Shown piece after piece: positions 48,813-49,215 of a stretch of DNA of 64,000 nucleotides. Position numbers and translations under genes: made by a program. The notes under the pieces were generated by a model. It did no database searches. It saw only the letters and a list, made by a program, of their open reading frames with translations, and was not told the DNA's origin. Position 1 is the stretch's first letter, and the number at the start of each line of letters is the position of its first letter. The stretch is taken from the NCBI RefSeq assembly GCF_054482525.1, contig NZ_CM137006.1, one strand, 5' to 3'.

Positions 48813-49043
48813 TCACTCTTCGTTCTTTCTGAGCATTGCGTTCAGGATGGTCAGCAATTTACGCATACAGTCAACCAGCGCCACTTTTTTGGTTTTTCCG
48901 GCTGCTGACAGATGCATGTAAAACGCCTTTATCACCGGATTAAACCAGGTTACCACAAGCGCTGCCATGTGCAGGGCTGCTCTTGCCTCCGTACGCGCAC
49001 TGGCGTCGTTCGGCCAGCAGATATGTGTGGGATAACAGGGATG
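48813..49043 (-). pseudogene. 3' remnant of an IS110-family transposase gene
   Basis: 77-codon open frame with no start codon; translation ...ALHMAALVVTWFNPVIKAFYMHLSAAGKTKKVALVDCMRKLLTILNAMLRKNEE resembles the conserved C-terminus of IS110-family transposases; no room for the N-terminal part. Confidence 0.45.
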
Positions 49044-49162
49044 TTATGTGAACTGAACTGTGTTTTGTTAACGGGGGATGTTTATTGATGATTCGGTAGT
49101 GTTTAAGACCTGATGGCGTTATGCTCCCAAGTTTATTTTATATAAAGATCCAAAAGCAAAAA

Positions 49163-49185
49163 CCCGCCTTGTGGGCGGGTTCTTT
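49163..49185 (-). terminator. Rho-independent terminator (minus-strand reading) at the end of the CP4-like module
   Basis: Hairpin cccgcc-ttgtg-ggcggg; on the minus strand it is followed by tttttgctttt. Confidence 0.6.
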
Positions 49186-49193
49186 AGAATTAG

Positions 49194-49215
49194 TGGTGCC
49201 GGACTCGGAATCGAA
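49194..49215 (-). other. 22-nt copy of the 3' end of tRNA-Phe (attachment-site-type direct repeat), not a tRNA gene
   Basis: tggtgccggactcggaatcgaa is the reverse complement of the tRNA-Phe 3' end TTCGATTCCGAGTCCGG(G)CACCA with one C missing; the rest of the tRNA is absent. Confidence 0.6.

Follow-up and report, generated by a model that had tools for sequence, protein, structure and literature searches.

A one-base-short copy of the tRNA-Phe 3′ end as the probable attR of a pheV genomic island next to a kps capsule locus

The satellite phage P4 targets leuX. P4 integration uses a tyrosine integrase with an arm-type DNA-binding domain, and the core of the attachment site is the 3′ end of a tRNA. 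Among the genomic islands that occupy pheV, GI-pheV has a "23-bp imperfect attR", TTCGATTCCGAGTCCGG-CACCA, which was listed for 16 E. coli strains of phylogroups A, B1, B2, D and E (PMC11537424, PLoS Genet 2024, Table 1). This imperfect attR allele is associated with islands carrying flu/yee remnants (PMC11537424). In K15 strains the order is T2SS-kps-kpsF-[22-bp pheV′]-yee genes, followed at the other end by integrase-pheV, and kps is flanked by yeeUV and gspM (PMC7387560). The PAI-V of K1 lineages is about 52 kb long, encodes a P4-like intB and has 22-bp repeats between kpsF and pheV; at least 14 excisions were inferred in CC95 (PMC10272209). Excision between the repeats was documented or inferred for PAI V of strain 536 and the PAI-V of CC95 (PMC7387560, PMC10272209, PMC7545054). 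For SHI-1 (she) of Shigella flexneri 2a, precise integrase-mediated excision between pheV and an imperfect 22-bp repeat is reported (cited in PMC1550401). Older catalogues place kps inside a "PAI-pheV" (PMC7545054).

The stretch of DNA analysed here, 64 kb long and called the window, contains such a site (Table 1). We are highly confident that nt 49146–49325 are the attR of a P4-type integrase genomic island (GI-pheV / PAI-V) in pheV. The sequence is identical to the GI-pheV attR, and it lies at the same 3′ end of a P4-type-integrase island at pheV with flu/yee (CP4-44-like) content (PMC11537424). There is no material difference from that system; in the present case two islands stand in tandem, as judged by comparison with strain AH50, and an IS4 lies 470 bp from attR on the kps side. 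The attR is therefore already known, its exact sequence being tabulated in the literature, and it is an ordinary island boundary. Only mildly new is that the missing base is linked to the island arm, is spread across genera and is found, rarely, in full-length pheV.

Table 1. Features of the window and of related pheV loci (window coordinates, except in the last row)
Feature	Position	Strand	Description
glcD to sslE, then gspC-M/yghD	1–24788	.	AH50 annotation and K-12 comparison
Group-2-type kps capsule locus	24789–47296	.	kpsMT, AT-rich region 2, IS1, kpsSCUDEF; between yghD/gspM and IS4/IS110 remnant
IS1	37799–38566		9-bp target duplication TCATTTATT; between the last region-2 capsule gene and kpsS
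kpsF, end of the kps locus	45585–46604		AH50 annotation
Complete IS4, 1426 bp	47297–48722	+	11-bp duplication CAATCATCAGG at 47286–47296 and 48723–48733; annotated IS4 transposase
IS110-family 3′ remnant, ~234 bp	~48758–48991	-	last ~60 codons and ~55 nt of the 3′ end
154-nt spacer	48992–49145	.	adjoins the pheV flank at its right edge
Native pheV downstream flank with intrinsic terminator	49146–49193	-	47/48 nt as in K-12 directly 3′ of pheV
pheV intrinsic terminator, stem-loop then T run	49184..49158	-	AAGAACCCGCCCACAAGGCGGGTTTTTGCTTTT; terminator scan positive on the - strand
Core of the probable attR, 22-nt copy of the tRNA-Phe 3′ end	49194–49215	-	TTCGATTCCGAGTCCGGCACCA; lacks one G of the 23 nt of the tRNA
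Island-side arm of the probable attR (putatively attP-derived P arm)	49216–49325	-	from the DUF4942 stop codon to the core
Tandem motif GGTATAattgagGGTACA (GGTATA-n6-GGTACA)	49285..49268	-	begins exactly 70 nt upstream of the core
DUF4942-family gene, last of the CP4-like yee module	49326–50168	-	ORF; WP_000065750.1 in strain 2452; same annotation in AH50
CP4-like flu/yee cargo, extending beyond the window	50169–64000	-	AH50 collinearity 99.68% and AH50 annotation
75-nt pheV in other genomes	4194–4268 (KE48, L006); 2492–2566 (L013, L014, L015)		coordinates within each locus

The PAI V of UPEC 536 and the PAI-V of CC95 share with the window the order gsp(T2SS)-kps-kpsF-pheV′-yee, then integrase-pheV, and the same 22-bp repeats. 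They differ in cargo, which in the window includes Ag43, LysR, hydrolase and MFS genes, and in capsule region 2; pix, pgt and pap were not seen within the window. SHI-1 resembles the window, by its description, in pheV integration and in a distal imperfect repeat of the 3′-terminal 22 bp of pheV, and differs in its cargo (pic, set). The island shares its mode of integration with P4 and with the cryptic P4-like prophages CP4-6, CP4-44 and CP4-57 of E. coli K-12, and the yee/flu gene set found here is that of CP4-44. Unlike in P4, replication and capsid-size genes were not seen, and the element is an island, not a functional satellite. 

The core TTCGATTCCGAGTCCGGCACCA has a single match across the 64-kb window in a motif search allowing up to 2 mismatches. 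Compared with K-12 pheV, it comprises the last 23 nt of tRNA-Phe minus one G of GGG (CCGG versus CCCGG on the plus strand), so the repeat covers 22 of the 23 nt of the target 3′ end. ARAGORN detected no tRNA gene over the 64 kb; tRNA-Phe is present only as its last 22 nt, and no complete cloverleaf exists within the window. The DUF4942 gene ends 110 nt from the 22-mer, and on the opposite side follow the IS110-family fragment, IS4 and kpsF. The position, the minus-strand orientation and the lack of a full tRNA, as described in the earlier note, were thus confirmed, and the annotation agrees with its view that the repeat separates the CP4-like module from the IS110 remnant, IS4 and the capsule locus.

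Directly after the 22-mer the sequence continues as the DNA that lies 3′ of pheV in K-12, including the terminator. A blastn alignment of nt 49215..49146 with the K-12 pheV 3′ end and its flank extends over 71 nt with 97.2% identity (E=4e-27). The same flank stands directly 3′ of pheV in KE48 and N1420, island-free strains that carry kps. The 48 nt of native pheV flank with its terminator next to the core therefore place the site at the distal edge (attR) of the integrase-delimited island, and they show that the target is pheV and not pheU. The fragment occupies the place where pheV originally ended, and the ancestral chromosome continues past it. The earlier note had taken the 22-mer for an attachment-site repeat left behind by integration into a tRNA-Phe gene, and the native flank, the empty sites and the identical published attR all uphold that claim.

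The window ends inside the island, and the layout of the far end is inferred from AH50 (NZ_CP169755), the closest complete genome. By blastn the window is collinear with AH50, at 99.99–100% identity to the left of nt 44264 and 99.68% to the right, and it has one extra IS1. The best match of the island part of the window in the genome collection reaches 99.6%. Neither an intact pheV nor an integrase is found in the 64 kb of the window itself. In AH50 an intact pheV is located at 960851–960926, about 80 kb from the 22-mer and on the same strand as the repeat, and it directly adjoins a P4-type integrase with an arm-type DNA-binding domain (959490–960674). The intact tRNA-Phe gene and the integrase of AH50 thus lie on the side and in the orientation expected if the 22-mer is a distal repeat; a misplaced tRNA gene had been named in the earlier note as evidence against it. 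A second repeat, TTTCATTCCGAGTCCGGGCACCA, is located 27 kb from the 22-mer and adjoins a second integrase. The AH50 array reads pheV-int1-island 1 (52 kb)-repeat-int2-island 2 (27 kb)-22-mer-terminator; it is a tandem of two islands, and the window holds the distal part of island 2.

After the DUF4942 gene, the cargo of this island encodes DUF957, DUF5983, CbtA/YeeU, DUF987, RadC, antirestriction, DUF932 and DUF905 proteins, Ag43 and a GTPase, beyond which lie LysR, hydrolase and MFS genes. The DUF4942 protein matched no family in an NCBIfam profile search, and its assignment follows the RefSeq annotation of near-identical relatives.

A 331-nt probe spanning both junctions (nt 49000–49330) was compared with 5426 complete E. 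coli genomes, and the classes below were defined from sampled matches and fetched loci. Both junctions occur as in the window in 639 genomes. KE48 and N1420 have no island; in them an intact pheV is followed directly by the same terminator, and then by the same spacer, IS110 remnant and kpsF. In strain 702/18 a different island end (ParDE) is joined to the same kps flank. In JNE141411 the same DUF4942 island end and core lead through the terminator into K-12-type sequence and yghD/gsp, without kps. Empty sites of the K-12 type occur in several genomes, DH1 and K-12 strains among them. In island-free genomes the match ends at nt 49215 (probe position 216), and K-12-type genomes align to the window only as far as nt 49146; alignment of the fetched loci puts the breakpoints exactly at 49215/49216 and 49145/49146. 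The presence and absence of the island and of kps thus occur in all four combinations in E. coli. Because these combinations have exact breakpoints, the island and the kps segment must have been acquired independently. For annotation, the limit of the integrase-mobilisable unit can be fixed at 49215/49216, with the capsule locus outside the unit.

The homology of the window to K-12 ends at nt 24788 in yghD and returns at nt 49146 (blastn), and the segment in between (24789–49145) replaces about 100 nt of the K-12 pheV-yghD intergenic DNA. The GC content is 33–37% in kps regions 2 and 3. The 154-nt spacer stays with the kps side, being present in island-free genomes with kps and missing from K-12-type genomes; it gave no match to IS110 elements. 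No second tRNA-Phe-like repeat bounding kps was found within the window with three probes at up to 3 mismatches, the yghD-kpsM gap read directly contains no tRNA repeat, and the far (yghD) side of kps has neither a tRNA repeat nor an integrase. The kps locus lies beyond attR and the native pheV terminator and is not cargo of the att-delimited pheV island. Nothing indicates that kps arrived by tRNA-targeted integration, and its position is uninformative on the order of arrival. Of the earlier note's proposal of stepwise accretion of at least two elements, independent acquisition holds, given the four combinations, while the order of arrival does not follow from the kps position. The suggestion that the capsule locus was joined through the tRNA site finds no support, there being no second tRNA-Phe repeat and the kps segment starting 48 nt past the tRNA end. 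A literature search on pheV, IS110 and capsule in combination returned nothing in the collection of papers searched.

Three insertion sequences are found on the capsule side. In relatives the IS110 remnant is annotated as a pseudogene at nt 48813..48995, labelled by PGAP as "IS110 family transposase, missing N-terminus", nt 48813 being the stop codon of the remnant ORF. It aligns with 86–89% identity (blastn) to the last ~60–70 codons and 3′ end of full-length plasmid-borne IS110-family genes, and its peptide corresponds to positions 282–342 of 343 in the NCBIfam profile NF033542 transpos_IS110 (E=4.5e-9). Upstream of the remnant there are in-frame stops, and the locus does not hold an intact IS110-family element, that is, a DEDD transposase of ~320–345 aa with both ends. 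Every kps-positive genome inspected has the remnant, so it is old, belonging to the kps flank and not to this strain. The IS4 occupies its site in only 4 of 5426 genomes (2452, AH50, GN03551 and GN03139) and has a perfect target duplication, and is therefore recent. The IS1 is missing from AH50, which is otherwise 99.99% identical. Both the IS4 and the IS1 copies are recent, strain-level events.

The missing G was followed in E. coli with a 64-nt probe consisting of 38 nt of the island arm, the core and 4 nt. The probe matched in 1122 genomes, and in 59 (~98%) of a spread sample of 60 matches the alignment to the window is free of indels; only CH10982 departs from this, with GGG. With the same arm, this −1 allele stands before three kinds of right flank, pheV/kps, pheV/gsp and the integrase side of pheU. 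Islands of the intP4.1 type on the same kps flank keep GGG, as seen in the match spans and in Table 1 of PMC11537424. That the −1 allele and the island arm occur together is a direct observation, and the missing G most likely came with the attP half-site, to judge from the sequences compared, and travels with the arm instead of having arisen locally. The alternative that the allele is a property of the chromosomal flank is disfavoured by its linkage to the arm in the sample of 60, and is kept as a minority view.

Some genomes complicate this picture. A full-length 75-nt pheV with the −1 allele, and hence GG in the acceptor stem, occurs in 18–21 of the 5426 E. coli genomes. All four of those inspected are island-free: KE48, M9682-C1, UPEC129 (kps flank) and HCP5S3_I2 (gsp flank). 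These alleles resemble scars left when an island was lost and its attR allele was copied into the tRNA gene; a cell with such a pheV would still have pheU in reserve. Strain 702/18 has the ParDE arm followed by TTTCA, the −1 allele and the terminator; compared with the internal repeat of AH50, it has the same island end, and the status of the G run differs with the right flank. To account for 702/18 and for the 18–21 genomes with a full-length −1 pheV, strands must have been exchanged 5′ of the G run or a heteroduplex must have been repaired; the case for a missing G brought in by the island is therefore not airtight. That the −1 allele is linked to the arm, and on rare occasions is transferred into pheV, could help to map the crossover site of the pheV/pheU integrases, and could explain the stability of some islands.

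In two pheU loci next to cadC (L038 and L039, nt 3001–3140), the same DUF4942 arm and core are followed by an integrase-side arm, which has a terminator hairpin of its own, and by a truncated integrase. At the core one locus has GG and the other GGG, which is the only difference between them.

The 22-mer is not confined to E. coli. Among one-genome-per-species representatives it occurs exactly at 22 loci (L016–L037), in a search that covered the exact −1 allele only. The genera are Yersinia, Budvicia, Citrobacter, Pantoea, Erwinia, Xenorhabdus (many), Sodalis, Rouxiella, Edwardsiella, Pectobacterium, Brenneria, Limnobaculum and Marinobacter; two MAG contigs with the 22-mer carry E. coli-like island ends. 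A full tRNA is absent at all of these loci but one, a 75-nt tRNA-Phe in Pantoea sp. IMH (L019). Some of the copies comprise about 45 nt of tRNA sequence and others 22 nt. A P4-type integrase gene lies within ~190 nt downstream of three copies (L027, L028 and L034). The earlier note had held that a wide occurrence in unrelated contexts would speak against an attachment site; the 22-mer proved to be widespread, but in homologous tRNA-Phe island contexts.

The island arms of several genera share a further feature with the window, in which the tandem motif begins at −70 relative to the core. A tandem short repeat at exactly −70 is also present in arms from Sodalis, Rouxiella, Brenneria, Xenorhabdus and Limnobaculum, whose islands are unrelated; examples are GGTAAAA-n7-GGTAAAA and GGGGCAT-n5-GGGGCAT. 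The loci with the repeat at this offset are L022–L025, L031 and L034–L037. These −70 repeats are candidate arm-type binding sites of the integrase. A broader proposal, which we consider doubtful, is that the one-base-short core is a conserved, element-borne att allele of tRNA-Phe-targeting islands across Enterobacterales. If so, the core would mark the strand-exchange site, in the terminal GGCACCA, and might tune island stability; mis-resolution would copy the defect into pheV, explaining the 18–21 island-free genomes with a 75-nt pheV.

Other explanations of the 22-mer have to be weighed against an attR. A motif so short could resemble a tRNA 3′ end by chance if it had no other support. Yet none of 100 dinucleotide-preserving shuffles contained a match, the alignment to pheV continues into the flank for 71 nt, and synteny is kept across thousands of genomes; a chance resemblance is thus next to impossible. 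It could also be argued that kps and the CP4-like module moved as one composite island, in which the 22-mer is an internal relic and not a boundary. Older catalogues do count capsule genes in PAI-pheV, such as the 80-kb PAI V536 with K15 and PAI-CFT073-pheV with K2 (PMC7545054), and co-transfer of K1-cps between lineages was inferred from PAI synteny (PMC10272209). Under this broad definition of PAI-pheV (PMC7545054) the site can be called internal, and to that extent the "internal junction" of the earlier note stands; by the att sites it is the distal end of the island. Against the composite island, the two segments occur independently of each other (four combinations, sharp breakpoints) and are separated by native pheV flank, and the far (yghD) side of kps is without a tRNA repeat or integrase, which makes joint movement very improbable.

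More weight belongs to the possibility that the insertion displaced the chromosomal 3′ end of pheV, that this end is the 22-mer, and that it has since lost one base by decay in situ. The fragment is contiguous with the native pheV flank, a distal copy is free of selection for tRNA function, and GGG is the longest homopolymer of the 23-mer and the likeliest place for a 1-nt slip. The rare island-free full-length pheV genes with the −1 allele, found with either flank as if the allele were chromosomal, fit this explanation as well, as does the comparison of 702/18 with the internal repeat of AH50, in which the G-run status follows the right flank. The earlier note likewise read CCGG versus CCCGG as a decaying older repeat. 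That reading is not borne out, for ~98% of the sampled matches from the 1122 genomes share the −1 allele across the pheV/kps, pheV/gsp and pheU flanks, and it is the published standard form (PMC11537424). One uniform −1 allele is not what independent local decay would be expected to give; in addition, GGG is intact in islands of other types that adjoin the same kps flank, and about 13 other genera have the identical 22-mer. Decay in place is therefore unlikely, and a missing G brought by the island into attR is preferred.

A mechanism for the formation of this attR can be proposed, in which the recombination chemistry and the position of strand exchange are inferred. The attP of the island would have carried a 22-nt near-copy of the tRNA 3′ end, which the integrase would have recombined with the 3′ end of pheV. 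An intact pheV would thereby be rebuilt next to the integrase, at the opposite end of the island beyond the window (attL); the distal end would be left with the island arm and the 22-nt core, followed by the DNA that had lain downstream of pheV before, terminator included. In the simplest reading, attP carried the −1 allele and strand exchange took place at the G run or 3′ of it, which would give attL back an intact tRNA. The kps locus and the old IS110 fragment form a separate block in the pheV-yghD intergenic region, beginning 48 nt past the tRNA end, and IS4 transposed into this block later.

Just upstream of kpsM, at nt 25805–25820, there is an ops/JUMPStart-like sequence, GGCGGTAGCGT. A JUMPStart motif is expected at the region 3 promoter of a group 2 capsule locus.

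Strain 2452 is 100% identical to the window over nt 48400–49700 and 99.98% identical over nt 44950–50637. It was considered as a coordinate proxy for the whole window and rejected, as its left flank is without gsp/glc and its island has collapsed; AH50 is collinear and was used instead. The pheV island of strain 2452 has shrunk to about 3 kb, with a truncated integrase, IS1 and the DUF5983, DUF957 and DUF4942 genes (L002, nt 5516–7294), and attR is kept despite the collapse. IS1-flanked genes are found in place of the yghD-yghS region. This layout indicates IS1-mediated deletions on both sides of kps.
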